Made by a program: the position numbers and the translations under genes. A DNA stretch of 11,336 nt from a virus (lineage: Duplodnaviria; Heunggongvirae; Uroviricota; Caudoviricetes), in the IMG/VR virus record IMGVR_UViG_2541047121_000017. The stretch is one strand, 5' to 3'. Numbering within the stretch: position 1 is the stretch's first letter; each line of letters starts with the position of its first letter. Shown here piece after piece: positions 1,562 through 10,589 of the stretch. The notes beneath the pieces are model-generated. The model was not told the DNA's origin, did not search any database, and saw only the letters and a program-made list of their open reading frames with translations.

Positions 1562-1876
1562 TTAAACACCTAACGCCCGACGCCCCAGCGCCATTGCTGC
1601 TTTTATTGTGGAACCGAATCCCATAAAGAAATCAGCAACCAGATCACCAGGTCGACTACTGGCATTGATTATTTGCCTGAGCATATCCGCCGGTTTCTCG
1701 CACGGATGTTTACCCGGGTAGAACTGAACGGGCTTATGCGTCCTGACATCGGTATAAGGCACGGAGACTGATACGGAGAAATAGCGCCGGTGAGATTTAA
1801 ACTCATCCAGCAATTCAGAAGATTTGCAATTCAGTGAATCATGAGATACCACCAACTGGTGGTAGGATTGTCTCAA
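1562..1876 (-). pseudogene. 5'-truncated DNA methyltransferase remnant (N6A/N4C class; C-terminal portion only)
   Basis: 104-aa ORF carrying HPCEKP (like the HPTQKP motif) and DFFMGFGST (like the DPFxGSGTT AdoMet-binding motif). The N-terminal half, including any DPPY catalytic motif, is absent. Upstream is AT-rich non-coding DNA. Confidence 0.5.
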
Positions 1877-2510: not shown

Positions 2511-3053
2511 TCACACTGATTGGTTAGGTAAAACGCTCCTAAGCACCATTGCGCAACCACCTCGTTCGTAATCAGCAATGTACTCAAAACCACTTTCAGT
2601 ATAGTATCTTATTGCCCCATCAACTGGACTAACTAAAGCTATCGAATCAATAGATTCACCCTGAAGGTTCAGAAATCGTGCATATGCAGAGAAGCAATCC
2701 AAAACGATACCAAGCATCTGATGGTCTAGGTCTTCATGTGCATCATTACGTTTTTCCATCCAGCAAATATGCACCGCATTTTTCGGCTTACAGTAACACC
2801 CAAATGCAAATCCAATAGGCTCCCCACGATAATAAACAACTAGTTTTATCGGGTGTTCTTCCATCATATCCATAAACACTCGCGACTTTAGTCCGGGATC
2901 CCACCGCAGTTTATTGTTAGCCTTGAGGAACTCCATATCTTTTAGTACCAGCTCGTCGGCATATACGAGCCCTAACGACTTATGAGGGAAGCGCCCTTTT
3001 AAATACTCTGCAACATTTTTAAATACTGCTGTTTGGAAGGCTTGAAACATCAT
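2511..3053 (-). CDS. Hypothetical protein (180 aa), first gene of the low-GC cassette; function unknown
   Basis: Clean 543-nt ORF in a region of lower GC than the flanking prophage genes. Has its own candidate promoter upstream. No transmembrane segments are obvious. The alternating beta-strand-like pattern and C-terminal YYTESGFEY hint weakly at an acyltransferase-like fold, but no GNAT motif A is visible. Confidence 0.6.
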   Translation of the reverse strand: MMFQAFQTAVFKNVAEYLKGRFPHKSLGLVYADELVLKDMEFLKANNKLRWDPGLKSRVFMDMMEEHPIKLVVYYRGEPIGFAFGCYCKPKNAVHICWMEKRNDAHEDLDHQMLGIVLDCFSAYARFLNLQGESIDSIALVSPVDGAIRYYTESGFEYIADYERGGCAMVLRSVLPNQSV

Positions 3054-5855: not shown

Positions 5856-6245
5856 TCAGGCGGCTGCACCCGCCGTTTTCTCGTACTTACTGATAGTGAT
5901 CTCGACCTTCCCTTCCGGGATAACCGGTCCCCACTCCACCAGCATTCTTTTCACCTGACTGTCGTCTTCCCACACACCCGCGTGGGTCAGGGCGTCAAAC
6001 AGCGCCTTGTTATAGTTGTCCAGATCGCGGATCCGGTTATCCGGAGGAAACAACACGATCTCCACTGAAGCAGGTGCCGACGTTGGTTTCGGCAGACGAC
6101 GTAACTGCTCAACTATTGCTGCGCACGCCGCGCTCTGGAATTTTCGCCCCGCCGCGCTTATCAGGCTCTTACCAGCAAACGCCCCTTTGTTGGGGTGTCG
6201 CCAGTACGTGTTCACGCTGGGCGGAAAAGGCAGGATCAGCTTCAT
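5856..6245 (-). CDS. rusA: RusA-family Holliday junction resolvase
   Basis: 129-aa ORF alignable to E. coli RusA (LPFPPSVNTYWRH…; …RDLDNYNKALFDALTHAGVWEDDSQV… vs RusA …[26 protein letters not shown]…). Its start overlaps the upstream stop (ATGA). Confidence 0.9.
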   Translation of the reverse strand: MKLILPFPPSVNTYWRHPNKGAFAGKSLISAAGRKFQSAACAAIVEQLRRLPKPTSAPASVEIVLFPPDNRIRDLDNYNKALFDALTHAGVWEDDSQVKRMLVEWGPVIPEGKVEITISKYEKTAGAAA

Positions 6246-6568
6246 ACTTTCAGGTCCCTCTCATGTAACCAGTGGGTTGCACGCAGCCTTGCGTTTTCCT
6301 CACCGGCAAGCAGTGCGCGGATAATCCCGACCGCCTCGCTGTCGTCGTCCTTCACCGCGATATGAAGCGTTATCCCCCGGGCCACGCCACGCTTTATCGT
6401 GATGACGCCTTTTTTCTCCAGTGCGCGAAGATGCTCCACCGCTGCATTCACTGAACGGTATCCCAGCATGGTTGCCACCTCCTGATTGGTTGGCGGGAAG
6501 CCACGTTCTTTCTGATAAGAAATCAGCATATCCAGCACCTGCTGCTGGCATTGAGTTAACGTCGTCAT
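6242..6568 (-). CDS. LexA N-terminal DNA-binding-domain homologue lacking the S24 peptidase domain (108 aa)
   Basis: Residues ~4-70 align with E. coli LexA 1-70 (LTxxQQxV…G.PPT..E.A..LG.RS.NAA.EHL.AL..KGVI.I..G..RGI.L). The ORF ends soon after a linker (…ALLAGEENA…) with no Ser/Lys catalytic domain. ATGA overlaps at both ends. Confidence 0.8.
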   Translation of the reverse strand: MTTLTQCQQQVLDMLISYQKERGFPPTNQEVATMLGYRSVNAAVEHLRALEKKGVITIKRGVARGITLHIAVKDDDSEAVGIIRALLAGEENARLRATHWLHERDLKV

Positions 6569-7218
6569 GCCGCCATCTCCCTGACCAGTTTTTCTGCCTG
6601 CTGGCGAACCTGCGCCAGAAAGGCCTCACCACATGCCTCAAGTTCATAGCGCCCGATGTAGCTGATTGCCGGTCCCTTCCAGGTCTTGTCGAAAACAGCA
6701 ATAGCACCAGCGAAGAAAGCGCCTGTCGGCACCTGCTTCTCATCCTTCGGGATAAACCAGGCAGGCAGTTCAAAACCAATACGCCCGCGAATAAAAGCAA
6801 TATGATCTGCATCTTCCGGCCACCACACTTCGCTGGTGGCAGCTTTGATCAGGAAAACATAGCGCCCGCCTTTATCACGCATGGCACTGGCATGCTTCAT
6901 GATGTAACGCATGCCGGTGATGTATTGCCCCTCATGCTGACTGGCGCGGCTGTATGGGGGATTACCAAAGGCAGCACCTTTAAGCTCCGCAAGACGTTCT
7001 GACCAGTCATGCGCCAGCGCGTTGTCTTCCGCAGTGTAATAAGCGGCACATTTGGCGTTATCACCGTCAGTGAACAGATCCAGAACAAACGGGCCAAACA
7101 GGGTGTTAATTCCCCAGAAAATGTTGTCCGGCGTGCGCCACTGATCGCCCACTTCCTTCAGTTCATGGGCTGGTTTGTTCCGCAGCTCCACCAGCGCCTG
7201 GCAATATTTATTACTCAT
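6565..7218 (-). CDS. Phage orphan N6-adenine DNA methyltransferase (Dam-like)
   Basis: 217-aa ORF from the ATG at 7216-7218, with catalytic NPPY motif (AFGNPPYS). Start overlaps the upstream stop (TAATG). No adjacent restriction endonuclease. Confidence 0.85.
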   Translation of the reverse strand: MSNKYCQALVELRNKPAHELKEVGDQWRTPDNIFWGINTLFGPFVLDLFTDGDNAKCAAYYTAEDNALAHDWSERLAELKGAAFGNPPYSRASQHEGQYITGMRYIMKHASAMRDKGGRYVFLIKAATSEVWWPEDADHIAFIRGRIGFELPAWFIPKDEKQVPTGAFFAGAIAVFDKTWKGPAISYIGRYELEACGEAFLAQVRQQAEKLVREMAA

Positions 7219-7712
7219 TAAGCCCCCACGTAATTCCCTGACAGATACCACTCTTCACCCGATACAGCGCGCTTGCTGCTTTTCCGTAAGCACCGCTCAC
7301 GACGCGCCAGAAAATTGTTTCGTTCTGGCTGGGAGTGGCTTTCACGGAATGCCGCCATCCACACCGTTGCAGCACGACGGTATAAGCCCCTGGACTCCAG
7401 TTCTTCAGCCTGGCGGGTCAGGCACAAAATCACCCGGGGATCGTTAGTGCCGACATAGAAATTGCGCACAGGTCTGGTTTCACGAACTGGTTGTGGTTCC
7501 GGCTCCTGCGCTCTCTCAGTCAGGCGCGGGAAATGTCTGCGTGTATCCCCTTCACAACGGTGAGCCACACGCCCACTCTGACGTAACTTGCTTGCAGACT
7601 GCAGAACGCGCTGCCGTGAGTAACCTGCAAAAGCATCCGCAATGTCTCCGGAAGTACAGCCCGGATGGGCTTCAATGAATTTCTGAACGTCATTCAAAAG
7701 ACTCATGCTCAC
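7218..7712 (-). CDS. Hypothetical protein with C-terminal PerC-like motif (possible PerC/Pch-family transcriptional activator), 164 aa
   Basis: C-terminal AEELESRGLYRRAATVWMAAF resembles the conserved PerC-family signature as I remember it; the N-terminal ~60 aa looks winged-helix-like. ATGA overlap with the initiator stop supports a real gene. Functional call is tentative. Confidence 0.5.
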   Translation of the reverse strand: MSMSLLNDVQKFIEAHPGCTSGDIADAFAGYSRQRVLQSASKLRQSGRVAHRCEGDTRRHFPRLTERAQEPEPQPVRETRPVRNFYVGTNDPRVILCLTRQAEELESRGLYRRAATVWMAAFRESHSQPERNNFLARRERCLRKSSKRAVSGEEWYLSGNYVGA

Positions 7713-8650
7713 CCCCTGAATCCTGCCGGGATCTGGCTGTAGTCCACGTTGTCGTAACTGGCTTTGAAGTACGGGTCCTCGCGTTTTTCGGTGTACGTGC
7801 TGACGGACGGCGATAAGCGCAGGGAAAGCTCATCCCATTTTTCCCGCAGCTTCGACGGGCTGAGCACGTTACGGCACCAGAACGGATCGCGACTGACGCG
7901 GCTGTACATCTCGCAGATTTGTTTATGAGTACGACCATCCTGCACACACATCAGGCGAATTTCGTTTGCCCAGGCTGTCCAGTTCGGTTCTTTGGGACGA
8001 ACCACCTCGCCGTCACATTCGGCGGCATGCTCGTACAGGGCGATGATTTTTTTCCAGAGCCACTGTGCACAGGTCAAATCATCCTGCGTCCCCCACTGGC
8101 GCTTTTTAGGGCTGAATACAACCGCATCAGGATGGCGAGTTAAAAAATCCTGTTCATCCGTCTGCGTGTCCGGTTGCGAAGCGTCCGGACGAGAAGGTTT
8201 TTTATCTGACGGATCATGTTTTGATTTTACTGACGGATCCCCGCCAGATTCTGACGGGTGAAAACCCGCTTTTTTGCCAGATTTCGACGCATCAAATTTT
8301 GACGGGTCAGATTTTGATGCGTCAGATTTTGACGGGTCAGAATCTGACAGTTGAGAAAATGCCGCTGCCTGAAGCTTCGCAACGTTAAGCTGATAAACAT
8401 TCGACGCATTGCGGTTACCCTGGCGACGCGCCTTACGCGTTAACCAGCCTTCTGCTTCCAGCCGTGCGATAGCCGTTCTGACGGTGCTCATCCCCGCGCC
8501 AATCTGGCGGGCAATGGTTTCAATTGATGGCCAGCACACACCTTCGTCATTACTGAAATCAGCCAGGCGGGCCATAATTGCCACGCTGGATAACTTCATG
8601 CCTGACGCAGCGCAACCATCCCATACATAGCCGGTTAATTTAGTGCTCAT
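7709..8650 (-). CDS. Replication initiator (lambda O-like organisation: N-terminal HTH domain, iteron-encoded repetitive linker, C-terminal domain)
   Basis: 313-aa ORF. N-terminus has an HTH (…SVAIMARLADFSNDEGVCWPSIETIARQIGAGMSTVRTAIARLEAEGWL…). The central region (SDPSKSDASKSDPSKFDASKS) is encoded by tandem DNA repeats. Positioned after the cII-like gene. Confidence 0.7.
   Translation of the reverse strand: MSTKLTGYVWDGCAASGMKLSSVAIMARLADFSNDEGVCWPSIETIARQIGAGMSTVRTAIARLEAEGWLTRKARRQGNRNASNVYQLNVAKLQAAAFSQLSDSDPSKSDASKSDPSKFDASKSGKKAGFHPSESGGDPSVKSKHDPSDKKPSRPDASQPDTQTDEQDFLTRHPDAVVFSPKKRQWGTQDDLTCAQWLWKKIIALYEHAAECDGEVVRPKEPNWTAWANEIRLMCVQDGRTHKQICEMYSRVSRDPFWCRNVLSPSKLREKWDELSLRLSPSVSTYTEKREDPYFKASYDNVDYSQIPAGFRG
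8203..8355. repeat. Iteron-like tandem array (about 15-bp units, consensus near GATTTTGACGGGTCA); candidate phage origin inside the initiator gene
   Basis: At least seven imperfect direct repeats with core TGACGG / GACGGG / GATGCG at roughly 15-bp spacing between 8203 and 8355. This is analogous to ori-lambda inside gene O. Confidence 0.6.
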
Positions 8651-8659
8651 GACCGACCT

Positions 8660-8998
8660 CTATTTCCCTGAATTTACGACGAAACTGTTCGAGCGGGCTG
8701 AAGCACTCATGCTCATAGCCTTCGCGGAGGTAGATAACCCGTTGTGTTTCCGGTTCCCAACGAATGACTCTGACGGGCACTCCGTAGTGATCTTTGAACC
8801 AGCGGTTAACTTGTCGCAAAGGACTGTCTCCTTTTGCCTGTTGAAATCACCCACAGCCCACTCTGCAAAGCTGTGGGTTACAATTTCCCTGTCACCTGGT
8901 ACATTCACTGCATAGCAATACTCCACCTTCGCTTTTCCACCCGGTACAGGAAGTGCAATCAGTTGCGAGCGACGGTAGTGTGTTGTTAAACTGTTCAT
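8660..8998 (-). CDS. Hypothetical protein (112 aa) between the cII-like and initiator genes
   Basis: ORF start overlaps the cII-like stop (ATGA) and ends 9 nt before the initiator ATG, fitting operon packing. The C-terminus is low-complexity ([17 protein letters not shown]) and a 9-bp-stem hairpin lies inside, so coding status is uncertain. Confidence 0.4.
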
Positions 8999-9546
8999 GC
9001 GTTAGTTTCTCCACAGTCACGACACGCCACGGCGCCCGGAGCTGCACACTCGCGGGCGTCATTACTTTCTGAAATGCAAAAAATTTTGTAGACCAGTGCT
9101 GCATGCTCCTGCAGCTTCGAAATTGAGAGGTACAGCTCGTCGTTAATTGCTGTCTTCTCATGCGGTTCCACTACACCGTCTTCAATTGCTGAACGAATCT
9201 GTTTTGAATAACTGCCGATCTGTTCAATGACCTCCAGCAGGCGTTGGTTGATATCGGCGTTGTCCACATCCTCGACATCAGGAAGAGACACAAAGACGCC
9301 ATTTGCAGACTGCGCCACAGCGTCAGCAATGAAGTGAGTTCCACCAGCACGTTGCAAAATCATTGCCCATCCCAGCGGGAAAATCTGATCGCCATCGGCA
9401 CGAAGGCGGTTAAATAATGCGTTCTCTGTTACATCCAGCCAGTCAGCAGCTTCAGCGTACCCCCCCGGCAACGCTGCGATAGTTTTTCTGACAGCTTTCA
9501 CGTACCACTCAGGCTGTTTTTCTACTTTCCAGTGATGCTTACCCAC
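8995..9546 (-). CDS. CII-like early regulatory protein (CP76/YdaT-like family), 183 aa
   Basis: GTG start at 9544-9546 with a near-perfect Shine-Dalgarno motif (AGGAGGTGA) 5 nt upstream. Sits immediately after the cro-like gene. Family assignment is by synteny and general resemblance, not a verified alignment. Confidence 0.6.
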
Positions 9547-9799
9547 GGTTCACCTCCTGTTCCTGTGGTTTAAACCCATTCTGGTTTTGGCTAGATTGAA
9601 AACGTGCCGGATAAAGAATCTGCATTTCGCTGACTTCACCCTTAAAAAAATTGGCTAAACGTTCTGCAAGCTCGATAGATGGAATCTGCTCCAGCCTCTC
9701 AATACGACTCAACGTCGCTGGATTGACTTGAACACCCGCAGCAACATGCTGCAAAGTGAAACCATGCGCCTTACGCACATTTCGTAATGGTGATTGCAT
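9539..9799 (-). CDS. cro: Cro-like HTH (XRE-family) regulator, 86 aa
   Basis: HTH signature (RKAHGFTLQHVAAGVQVNPATLSRIERLEQIPS…). Transcribed divergently from the cI-like gene, with a GGAGG Shine-Dalgarno motif 4 nt upstream of the ATG. Confidence 0.75.
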   Translation of the reverse strand: MQSPLRNVRKAHGFTLQHVAAGVQVNPATLSRIERLEQIPSIELAERLANFFKGEVSEMQILYPARFQSSQNQNGFKPQEQEVNRG

Positions 9800-9896: not shown

Positions 9897-10589
9897 ATGA
9901 ACATAGGAAACCGAGTCAGACAACTTCGCCAAGCGAAGAACATGAAAATCGCCGATCTCGCTGAAGCGATAGGAGTAGATGCGGCGAACATCTCGCGCTT
10001 AGAAACGGGTAAGCAAAAACAATTTACCGAACAAACACTGAGTAATATTGCCAAGAGCTTAGGTGTTGATATTGCTGATCTCTTTACCTCTGCCCACAAA
10101 AGTAATACTGTATATAAAAACAGTAATAATGAGGATGTTGCGCAGGTGAAGGATGTGTTCCGTATTGAAATGCTGGATATCAGTGCCAGTGCGGGAAATG
10201 GCCTTATCCAGGGCGGTGATGTCATTGATGTGATTCATGCCATCGAATACAGAACTGATAATGCTGTATCAATGTTCGGCGGACGACCAGCCAATCACAT
10301 CAAAGTTATCAACGTTCGTGGGGACAGTATGTGTCCAACCATTGAGCCAGGAGATCTCATCTTCGTTGATGTCAGCATCAATCAGTTTGATGGTGATGGT
10401 ATATATGTCTTTGGTTTTGATGACAAAACATACGTTAAAAGACTTCAAATGATTCCTGACAAACTGCTGGTGATTTCTGATAACCAGATTTACCGTGAAT
10501 GGGGAATTACTAGCGAAAACGAACACCGATTCATGGTCTTTGGAAAGGTCTTAATCAGTCAGTCGCAAACCCTTAAGAGACATAATTAA
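9897..10589 (+). CDS. cI: CI-like repressor (N-terminal XRE HTH plus C-terminal S24 LexA-like autopeptidase domain), 230 aa
   Basis: N-terminal HTH (RVRQLRQAKNMKIADLAEAIGVDAANISRLETGK) and C-terminal S24 signature with the catalytic Ser in GDSM (RGDSMCPTIEPGDLIFVD) and Lys in YVKRL. Divergent from the cro-like gene. Confidence 0.9.
   Translation: MNIGNRVRQLRQAKNMKIADLAEAIGVDAANISRLETGKQKQFTEQTLSNIAKSLGVDIADLFTSAHKSNTVYKNSNNEDVAQVKDVFRIEMLDISASAGNGLIQGGDVIDVIHAIEYRTDNAVSMFGGRPANHIKVINVRGDSMCPTIEPGDLIFVDVSINQFDGDGIYVFGFDDKTYVKRLQMIPDKLLVISDNQIYREWGITSENEHRFMVFGKVLISQSQTLKRHN
10106..10125. promoter_or_regulatory. Near-consensus LexA (SOS) box TACTGTATATAAAAACAGTA inside the cI coding sequence
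   Basis: CTGT-N8-ACAG with TA flanks and an AT-only spacer at 10106-10125; two mismatches to the E. coli consensus TACTGTATATATATACAGTA. It is the only CTGT-N8-ACAG in the window and encodes the cI interdomain linker (…TVYKNSN…). Confidence 0.6.

Follow-up and report, generated by a model that had tools for sequence, protein, structure and literature searches.

In phage lambda, the initiator O's C-terminal domain works with P and recruits the helicase, as established by lambda genetics. Three loader types, lambda-type, DnaC-type and DnaB-family, have been described in the O157 Sakai prophages (PMC2669165), and the DopC/DopE pair has been presented as lambda-like helicase 'matchmaker' genes that became domesticated (Brezellec et al. 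2017, PMC5509034). On the host side, how DnaT recruits DnaB/DnaC is stated to be unknown, and a direct contact between DnaC and DnaT has not been demonstrated (PMC11087952). Here we analysed an 11,336-nucleotide stretch of viral DNA (IMG/VR record IMGVR_UViG_2541047121_000017; hereafter the window), which is the early-right and lysis part of a lambdoid prophage, its genes lying on the minus strand. Its replication module consists of a 313-aa initiator (7709-8650, minus strand) followed by a yfdN-like gene with a PerC domain (7218-7712, minus strand) and by a gene for a phage N6-adenine methyltransferase, Dam (6565-7218, minus strand). We consider it probable, taking the evidence as a whole, that this is a working initiator-only module that would use the host DnaB-DnaC by means of a short tail at the C-terminus of the initiator, the yfdN-like protein being an accessory and not a loader.

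The module itself is already known and annotated, ordinary and very common; the one result worth follow-up is the rule that relates the tail of the initiator to the type of loader. The same genes are found in the same order as orf39-orf40-dam in phage SfV and as yfdO-yfdN in the K-12 prophage CPS-53, with essentially no difference from the window, and the 164-aa protein is 96% identical to SfV orf40. The K-12 copy lies in a decayed cryptic prophage. The initiator, of the SfV orf39/K-12 YfdO type, is annotated as a replication protein in SfV, SfII and mEp460 and bears the RefSeq name 'helix-turn-helix domain-containing protein'. RefSeq names the identical yfdN-like gene 'yfdN: PerC family transcriptional regulator', and yfdN has been called 'the K12 unique PerC homologue' (PMC5931665). 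It makes up the early-right replication block in a lambdoid prophage of the SfV-like type, integrated at thrW in O157:H7-type genomes.

No P, DnaC or DnaB was detected among the early proteins of the window by Pfam, PHROG and NCBIfam scans. Six-frame tblastn searches were run against the window and the complete SfV genome, with P of lambda, phi80, Klebsiella, Yersinia and Aeromonas and with E. coli DnaC, DnaB and DnaT as queries. For a lambda P-type loader all matches in both targets had E > 0.2, and neither Pfam nor PHROG gave a P match; for a DnaC/IstB-type AAA+ loader, E. coli DnaC gave only E > 0.7 in the window and in SfV, again with no Pfam match; and for a DnaB-type helicase (P22 gp12/HK022 type), E. 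coli DnaB had no match in the window and one at E 0.79 in SfV. The sole meaningful match of these searches was the nine-residue DnaT tail (E 0.8-1.0). Nor is a loader or helicase annotated in the 37-kb SfV genome or in an identical O157:H7 prophage located at thrW/proA. A preliminary description of this DNA had reported that the early operon holds no helicase or loader, and these scans bear it out; in the profile comparison with Pfam PerC, P, DnaC and DnaB that it suggested, PerC passes its threshold and no early protein is identified as a loader. Where it had put the PerC-like gene in the position of P, we arrive at a different placement: by comparison with other modules, the P/DnaC slot here is simply empty, and the gene sits in the slot of the 'ren-like' winged-helix genes that comes after P or DnaC.

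An empty slot might mean that the prophage became replication-defective by losing its loader, one of the two outcomes that the preliminary description had allowed for. Such a reading has in its favour that neither the window nor the identical prophage as a whole has a loader or helicase gene; the latter also carries one frameshifted gene and a truncated methyltransferase. That prophage nevertheless has a full set of morphogenesis genes and looks complete, and all early open reading frames (ORFs) of the window are intact and coupled. A 3.4-kb block that includes the loaderless module is 97-98% identical in the sequenced phages SfII, SfIV, SfV, mEp460 and PhiR29, and likewise in ECOR-derived phages for which E. 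coli C is recorded as a second host; 2732 of the 5426 complete E. coli genomes contain it, with 100% identity in O157:H7 strains. Close relatives were analysed separately, since SfV-type tails (D-x-x-x-I, as in the window) fall outside the pattern used for the tail scan described below. Among the matches listed on viral contigs with enough downstream sequence, the initiator and yfdN-like arrangement is kept in 72 of 75 close relatives and a loader is found in none of the 75. Because the near-identical block occurs in phages and in so many genomes, and because loaderless relatives are recurrent, a replication-defective prophage is unlikely, and we give the loss of a loader hardly any credence as the explanation.

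The initiator gene was correctly recognised from the start, together with the coupled 164-aa gene behind it: the protein matches phrog_391 ('replication initiation O-like') at E 4e-135, and residues 23-70 (8441-8584, minus strand) form an N-terminal winged-helix HTH_36 domain (PF13730, E 4.2e-11) that is presumed to bind iterons. On this domain the DnaD_N and RP-C profiles of Pfam gave sub-threshold matches, while Phage_rep_O (PF04492), which detects lambda O itself at E 5.7e-36, did not match the window initiator; NCBIfam offered no useful name for the protein and a PDB sequence search returned generic MarR-type winged helices only. The linker-coding part of the gene contains an iteron array (8245-8346), with six 15-bp units resembling CAGATTTTGACGGGT, four of them in 15-bp tandem (repeat families D1-D3). 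All six matches, counted with at most three mismatches, lie within this interval, against a chance expectation of 0.41, and six were reached in none of 200 shuffles; the GC fraction dips to 0.42-0.45 at the array. The putative origin is located inside the initiator gene, as in lambda.

Residues 166-277 of the initiator (7820-8155, minus strand) make up a C-terminal domain homologous to the P-interacting C-terminal domain of lambda O, with 39% identity to lambda O residues 171-270 (E 2e-19), and it also matches phi80 gp15, 434 O and the O proteins of Klebsiella, Yersinia and Aeromonas. Taken alone, this domain had no match in Pfam, Phg_2220_C included, and the DNA-binding domain of DnaT (PF17948) did not match the initiator at E <= 1. 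The window module thus shares with lambda O/P, as with phi80 gp15/gp14 and 434, an iteron origin in the initiator gene and a homologous C-terminal domain; as in lambda, the initiator gene follows cII in the pR operon and a small winged-helix gene comes after the replication genes, as ren does after P. It differs in having no P, in carrying HTH_36 in place of Phage_rep_O, and in ending with IPAGFRG where lambda O ends with NTDWIYGVDL. DopC resembles the window initiator in that an O-like protein combines an HTH_36 N-terminus with a DnaT-type C-terminal element; however, DopC is paired with the P-like DopE and has no iterons, whereas the window initiator has iterons and no partner gene (PMC5509034).

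The last nine residues of the initiator, SQIPAGFRG (residues 305-313; 7712-7738, minus strand), are the DnaT-type tail, for which we propose a role as docking motif for the host DnaB-DnaC. The protein ends in ...DYSQIPAGFRG and E. coli DnaT in ...DSQIPPGFRG, so that eight of nine residues are identical to DnaT residues 171-179, at the extreme C-terminus of both proteins. In DnaT the full tail comprises 19 residues, R-D-[VIL]-N-x-[IVL]-S-x-P-D-x-x-I-P-x-G-F-R-G, and its R, D, N, S, P, D, I, P, G, F, R and G hardly vary among 91 orthologues of DnaT from enterobacteria. This segment lies outside the Pfam DnaT model, which stops at residue 153 (E. coli dnaT, L001 2979-3518), and the last 19 residues of DnaT go unmentioned in the DnaT structural papers examined. 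Relatives of the window initiator keep the tail while the 20-30 residues before it vary freely. Several have the longer DnaT form, for example P0207 with RDVNAISEPDNTIPEGFRG as compared with RDVNTVSEPDSQIPPGFRG in DnaT, and the full 19-residue motif occurs in relatives whose C-terminal domains are about 52-66% identical (P0159, P0207, P0214 and P0217). Related phage initiators with the full motif also have a dnaC homologue next to them, at the 0-7 nt spacing of dnaT-dnaC. Unlike DnaT, the window initiator has neither the PF17948 DNA-binding domain nor an adjacent dnaC, and its targeting would be sequence-specific, through iterons, and not through PriA/PriB. The O proteins that have P as the next gene (lambda, phi80, Klebsiella, Yersinia) end differently, in ...D(L/F)xNTDW(I/A)(Y/N)GVxx.

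To survey the tails, viral contigs were scanned with the pattern D-x-x-I-P-x-G-F-R-G-stop, which gave at least 120 loci; the diversity reported here comes from such tail-pattern scans, as a search with an alignment of the C-terminal domain returned only near-identical loci. All counts that follow refer to the matches listed. Nearly all of the loci are C-termini of replication initiator or organizer proteins, with the extended DnaT-like motif. Where at least 800 nt of downstream sequence was available (106 loci), a DnaC homologue begins within 0-7 nt in 56 (phmmer E ~1e-75), a layout like that of E. coli dnaT-dnaC. Elsewhere the next gene is dam (5 loci), a PerC-like gene (1) or a Kp131-like winged-helix gene (1), and in 42 of the 106 it matches none of the reference proteins; in the two largest of these unmatched groups, 35 loci together, the representative that was checked is a DUF977/Ren-like winged-helix protein. 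P was the next gene in none of the 106. With at least 1.5 kb downstream (92 loci), DnaC is present in 49, P in none, and 43 have no loader or helicase. Because of these 43 loci, loaderless modules are a recurrent design and not a product of decay, a further point against a defective prophage.

Lambda-type tails behave in the opposite manner: of the 106 loci with enough downstream sequence, 104 have P as the very next gene and 2 have it close by, and DnaC follows in none. The comparison was also made in reverse, from phage dnaC loci collected with a DnaC alignment, a single-protein query having found only two; in 75 of 77 such loci the upstream ORF ends in IPxGF[RS]G, and in one more it ends in IPPGFKG. 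The DnaT-type tail is carried by at least five families of C-terminal domain unrelated by blastp, the lambda-O-like, DnaT-like (PF17948), Phg_2220_C and DUF1376-linked domains among them, and within the lambda-O-like family alone the tail type switches with the loader type. In a literature search we found no description of this covariation between tail and loader, and no paper on an 'initiator-solo' or similar arrangement.

Since the type of tail tracks the type of loader while the host helicase stays the same, we infer that the tails are loader-specific docking motifs. For the window, the DnaT-type tail core on the initiator together with the missing loader gene makes direct recruitment of the host DnaB-DnaC the most likely route, and this agrees with an earlier suggestion that the C-terminus of the initiator, in which we find a lambda-O-homologous domain followed by a DnaT-like tail, might recruit host DnaB/DnaC. 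In the mechanism that we propose, the 313-aa initiator would bind the 15-bp iterons in its own gene through the HTH_36 winged helix, a step suggested by its anatomy and by the precedent of lambda O. Its C-terminal domain, homologous to the helicase-recruiting domain of lambda O, ends in the DnaT tail core (IPxGFRG) instead of a lambda-type tail, and this tail would dock DnaB6-DnaC6 of the host, with DnaC as the most likely contact. A loader of the phage's own would then not be needed, and the yfdN-like protein would act as a DNA-bound accessory regulator, dispensable for the replication module. More generally, we advance, as a tentative proposal that we hold with a little less than even confidence, that the tail common to DnaT and many initiators of enterobacterial phages, with IPxGFRG as its core and RDVNxISxPDxxIPxGFRG in full, may be a portable short linear motif that docks DnaB6-DnaC6, likely through DnaC, as the counterpart of NTDWIYGV with P.

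Several points weigh against these proposals. The tail of the window matches only the last 9 of the 19 residues of the DnaT motif, its upstream half (RDVNxISxPD) not being conserved, and the link of the tail to DnaC or DnaB comes from comparison alone. The census covers enterobacterial phages only, and its loci are related and not phylogenetically independent. The tail and downstream genes that cdtI shares with Stx2c phages might be no more than the sign of a recombination boundary. Preprimosome work, moreover, proposes the N-terminal domain of DnaT, and not the tail, as the recruiter of DnaB/DnaC (PMC13377028; PMC12871339).

With regard to phage cdtI, its initiator has a different C-terminal domain and yet shares the last ~24 residues with the window initiator, IPAGFRG included. 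Given this identity, a mosaic joint lies just upstream of the tail.

The last of the points above is also the starting point of another explanation, in which the host DnaB-DnaC is used but the tail binds PriA, PriB, SSB, single-stranded DNA or another initiator subunit, and the helicase comes in through the lambda-O-like domain or DnaA. The C-terminal domain of DnaT docks on PriA and forms filaments on single-stranded DNA (PMC12871339, PMC13377028); its N-terminal domain is the published candidate for DnaB/DnaC recruitment, no direct DnaT-DnaC contact having been shown, and the C-terminal domain of lambda O itself recruits the helicase. The census does not sit well with such an explanation. 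The helicase of the host is constant, yet the lambda tail goes with P in 106 of 106 listed loci and the DnaT tail never does; the DnaT-type tail stands upstream of dnaC in 76 of the 77 listed phage loci, and at least five unrelated C-terminal domains share it. A tail with another binding partner is therefore unlikely in our estimation, although it deserves to be taken seriously.

The puzzle of the missing loader has a mundane answer, probably a functional initiator-only module with an accessory regulator. If docking of DnaB-DnaC by the tail is correct, tail-bearing initiators would be able to load the helicase of the host without a loader gene. The tails of phage initiators appear to be interchangeable parts that specify the loader, lambda-type with P and DnaT-type with DnaC, either of the phage or of the host, and the rule would be a simple sequence predictor of host-factor dependence for lambdoid and Shiga toxin (Stx) phages. 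The same motif would then be the missing link for DnaB/DnaC recruitment by the PriA-PriB-DnaT preprimosome, a step stated to be unknown in papers of 2024-2026, and it offers a concrete hypothesis, at the level of a peptide, for the way in which DnaB-DnaC passes from DnaT to an abandoned fork in replication restart.

The yfdN-like protein (164 aa) as a whole falls in phrog_1324 ('transcriptional activator'; E 8e-79). An AlphaFold2 model with a predicted local distance difference test (pLDDT) score of 77 consists of a winged helix at residues 1-60, a disordered linker at 63-82 and a three-helix PerC domain at 90-148, where pLDDT is above 90. The N-terminal winged-helix domain, three helices and a beta-hairpin, corresponds to 7527-7706 (minus strand; residues 1-60 in the 162-aa numbering), and Foldseek aligned it with winged helix-turn-helix proteins of the ArsR/SmtB, MarR and BlaI types at 1.4-2.8 Å over 56-68 columns. 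The PerC domain, three helices at residues 100-152 in the 164-aa numbering (7257-7415, minus strand), matches PF06069 with E 3.4e-9 and 37.3 bits against a gathering cut-off of 22.6; the PerC/Pch-like signature that had been noticed at the C-terminus, AEELESRGLYRRAATVW at residues 101-117, is thus confirmed by profile. The ANR family (NF033650 of NCBIfam) remains below threshold, with 23.5 bits against a cut-off of 32, and a PDB sequence search with the 164-aa protein had no match.

The position of this gene, directly behind the initiator and translationally coupled to it in an arrangement kept in 72 of the 75 close relatives, raises the question of whether its product might be a novel type of helicase loader or adaptor, taking the place of P. 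Neither Pfam nor AlphaFold2 nor Foldseek revealed an AAA+, P-like or DciA-like fold in the 164-aa protein; what it has is a winged helix and a PerC fold. In phage cdtI only a yfdN-like remnant of 30 codons (MSLLNEVQKFIEAHPGCTSGDIADAFYVGD, then a stop) is left between the initiator and dam (L413 2498-2590), an insertion sequence interrupts the gene in Stx2a_WGPS2, and in five sister modules (L124, L135, L136, L154 and L174) dam comes directly after the initiator. Because of this remnant, interruption and absence, the yfdN-like gene appears, on comparative grounds, to be dispensable for the replication module. Proteins with a homologous N-terminal domain, furthermore, occur in addition to P or DnaC and not instead of them. 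Taking into consideration its fold, the placement of these relatives after P or DnaC, and its reduction or absence in sister modules, the 164-aa protein is not a loader, and for a novel adaptor in place of P we see very little probability.

Small winged-helix genes hold a conserved slot after the replication genes in many lambdoid modules (L083, L086, L089, L118, L208 and, in the window, 7527-7706). The order is O, P, Ren in lambda and O, P, 'MarR' protein in Klebsiella phage ST16-OXA48phi5.2; in DnaC-type modules it is initiator, DnaC, DUF1627 protein, and in loaderless modules initiator, DUF977 protein. The N-terminal domain of the yfdN-like protein is similar to the MarR-like post-P protein of the Klebsiella phage (BLASTP, 29% identity over 73 aa, E 5e-5), which in turn matches both phrog_1324 (E 3.8e-8) and the Ren-like phrog_142 (E 2.6e-7), and this winged helix and the ren-slot proteins share the motif xFIxxHPGC(T/S)xxDI. 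The 164-aa protein itself also matches phrog_1687 (E 6e-5). Because of the slot position and of the similarity to the Klebsiella post-P protein, the yfdN-like gene is best described as a ren-slot winged-helix gene that gained a PerC domain. It is like the Ren, DUF977, DUF1627 and MarR-like proteins in its slot directly after the replication genes and in its N-terminal winged helix, and unlike them in the extra PerC domain. Telling against this description, the relationship to Ren is weak: an hhalign comparison with a small Ren-like alignment gave E 1.2e-3 and a probability of 19%, and the match to phrog_142 ('Ren-like') has E 0.006. Divergent proteins of 137-143 aa that combine a winged helix with a PerC-like part are found after other DnaT-tail initiators (L091 6928-7341 and L164 1115-1546), the one in L091 below the Pfam PerC threshold (E 0.043), which implies a winged-helix/PerC fusion of greater age and diversity than the yfdN cluster.

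PerC and Pch are single-domain proteins of ~90-105 aa. The window protein, at 162 or 164 aa, is longer than such small single-domain members. With PerC of enteropathogenic and Pch of enterohaemorrhagic E. coli, the activators of the enterocyte effacement locus (LEE), and with the ANR anti-activators, it has in common a C-terminal three-helix domain that passes the PerC threshold, along with the weak match to the ANR family; it differs from them in its two-domain build, with an added winged helix and a disordered linker, and in its location within a phage early replication operon instead of as a cargo or plasmid gene. Its probable role is that of an accessory regulator, bound to DNA and produced early after induction. 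That it acts in the manner of Pch on nucleoid-silenced promoters, or modulates the nucleoid or H-NS, is a speculative guess of ours.

A more specific role, compatible with the initiator-only explanation, is that of a Pch-like activator of the LEE (ler) regulon in an O157 host, and since an O157 prophage would produce a protein with a PerC domain early after its induction, cross-talk with the LEE is a possible subject of interest. The Pfam match to PerC is above threshold and the window is 100% identical to O157:H7 prophages; moreover a ler reporter strain had yfdN removed by way of precaution, the gene being counted as a PerC homologue (PMC5931665). The extra winged helix, however, departs from the PerC model of ~90 aa (Pfam profile length 90), and identity of the PerC domain to plasmid genes of the PerC family amounts to only 32-43%, with weak E-values. 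In addition, the PerC-like gene of a phage-inducible chromosomal island (PICI) studied in PMC11773190 represses LEE1, and the PerC-like genes of two other E. coli PICIs, as cited in that paper, had no effect on LEE1 reporters. PerC homologues other than those of the PchABC group are reported either to leave LEE1 without activation or to act as its repressors (PMC11773190). Activation of the LEE by the yfdN-like protein seems to us quite unlikely.

As regards the layout of the operon, the coordinates and gene calls of the preliminary description were right apart from the bases of one overlap. The junction between the initiator and the yfdN-like gene (7709-7712) was given there as ATGA and reads GTGA on the coding strand, a GTG start overlapping the TGA stop of the initiator. 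From this GTG at 7712 the yfdN-like protein has 164 aa. An alternative ATG at 7706-7704, two codons further downstream, is preceded by GGGGGTGA and gives 162 aa and the arrangement TGA-GC-ATG. This ATG is the likelier start; with either codon the coupling of the two genes remains tight. The next junction, a TAATG overlap at 7216-7220, couples dam translationally to the yfdN-like gene. The dam gene (PF05869, E 5e-45; TIGR01712, E 9.7e-76) starts at ATG 7218 and not at GTG 7251, and the RefSeq coding sequence begins at the equivalent of ATG 7218. That a Dam gene comes next had been stated correctly; its designation as an orphan does not hold, as Dam is a conserved member of this operon.

Upstream of the initiator, and overlapping its start, lies the DUF4222 small gene (8640-8819, minus strand; PF13973, E 8.6e-19), which is annotated in the identical O157 prophage and is one of two small ORFs between the initiator and the cII/YmfL-like gene (8995-9546, minus strand). 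These are preceded by cro (9539-9799, minus strand) and by the cI-like repressor gene on the plus strand (9897-10589). Downstream of dam, and coupled to it by an ATGA overlap at 6565-6568, a gene at 6242-6568 (minus strand) encodes a 108-aa protein that has the LexA DNA-binding domain (PF01726, E 2.9e-19) and no peptidase domain; as a LexA mimic that cannot be cleaved, it could modulate the SOS response when the prophage is induced. Beyond it follow RusA, KilA-N, DUF968, Q and the lysis genes. Between Q and the lysis genes, where GC is low, lies a 180-aa ORF (2511-3053, minus strand) that RefSeq lists as hypothetical for the identical prophage; it may be a cargo (moron) gene. Upstream of the holin gene there is a truncated DNA methyltransferase remnant of 104 aa (1562-1876, minus strand), annotated as a pseudogene in the identical O157:H7 prophage.

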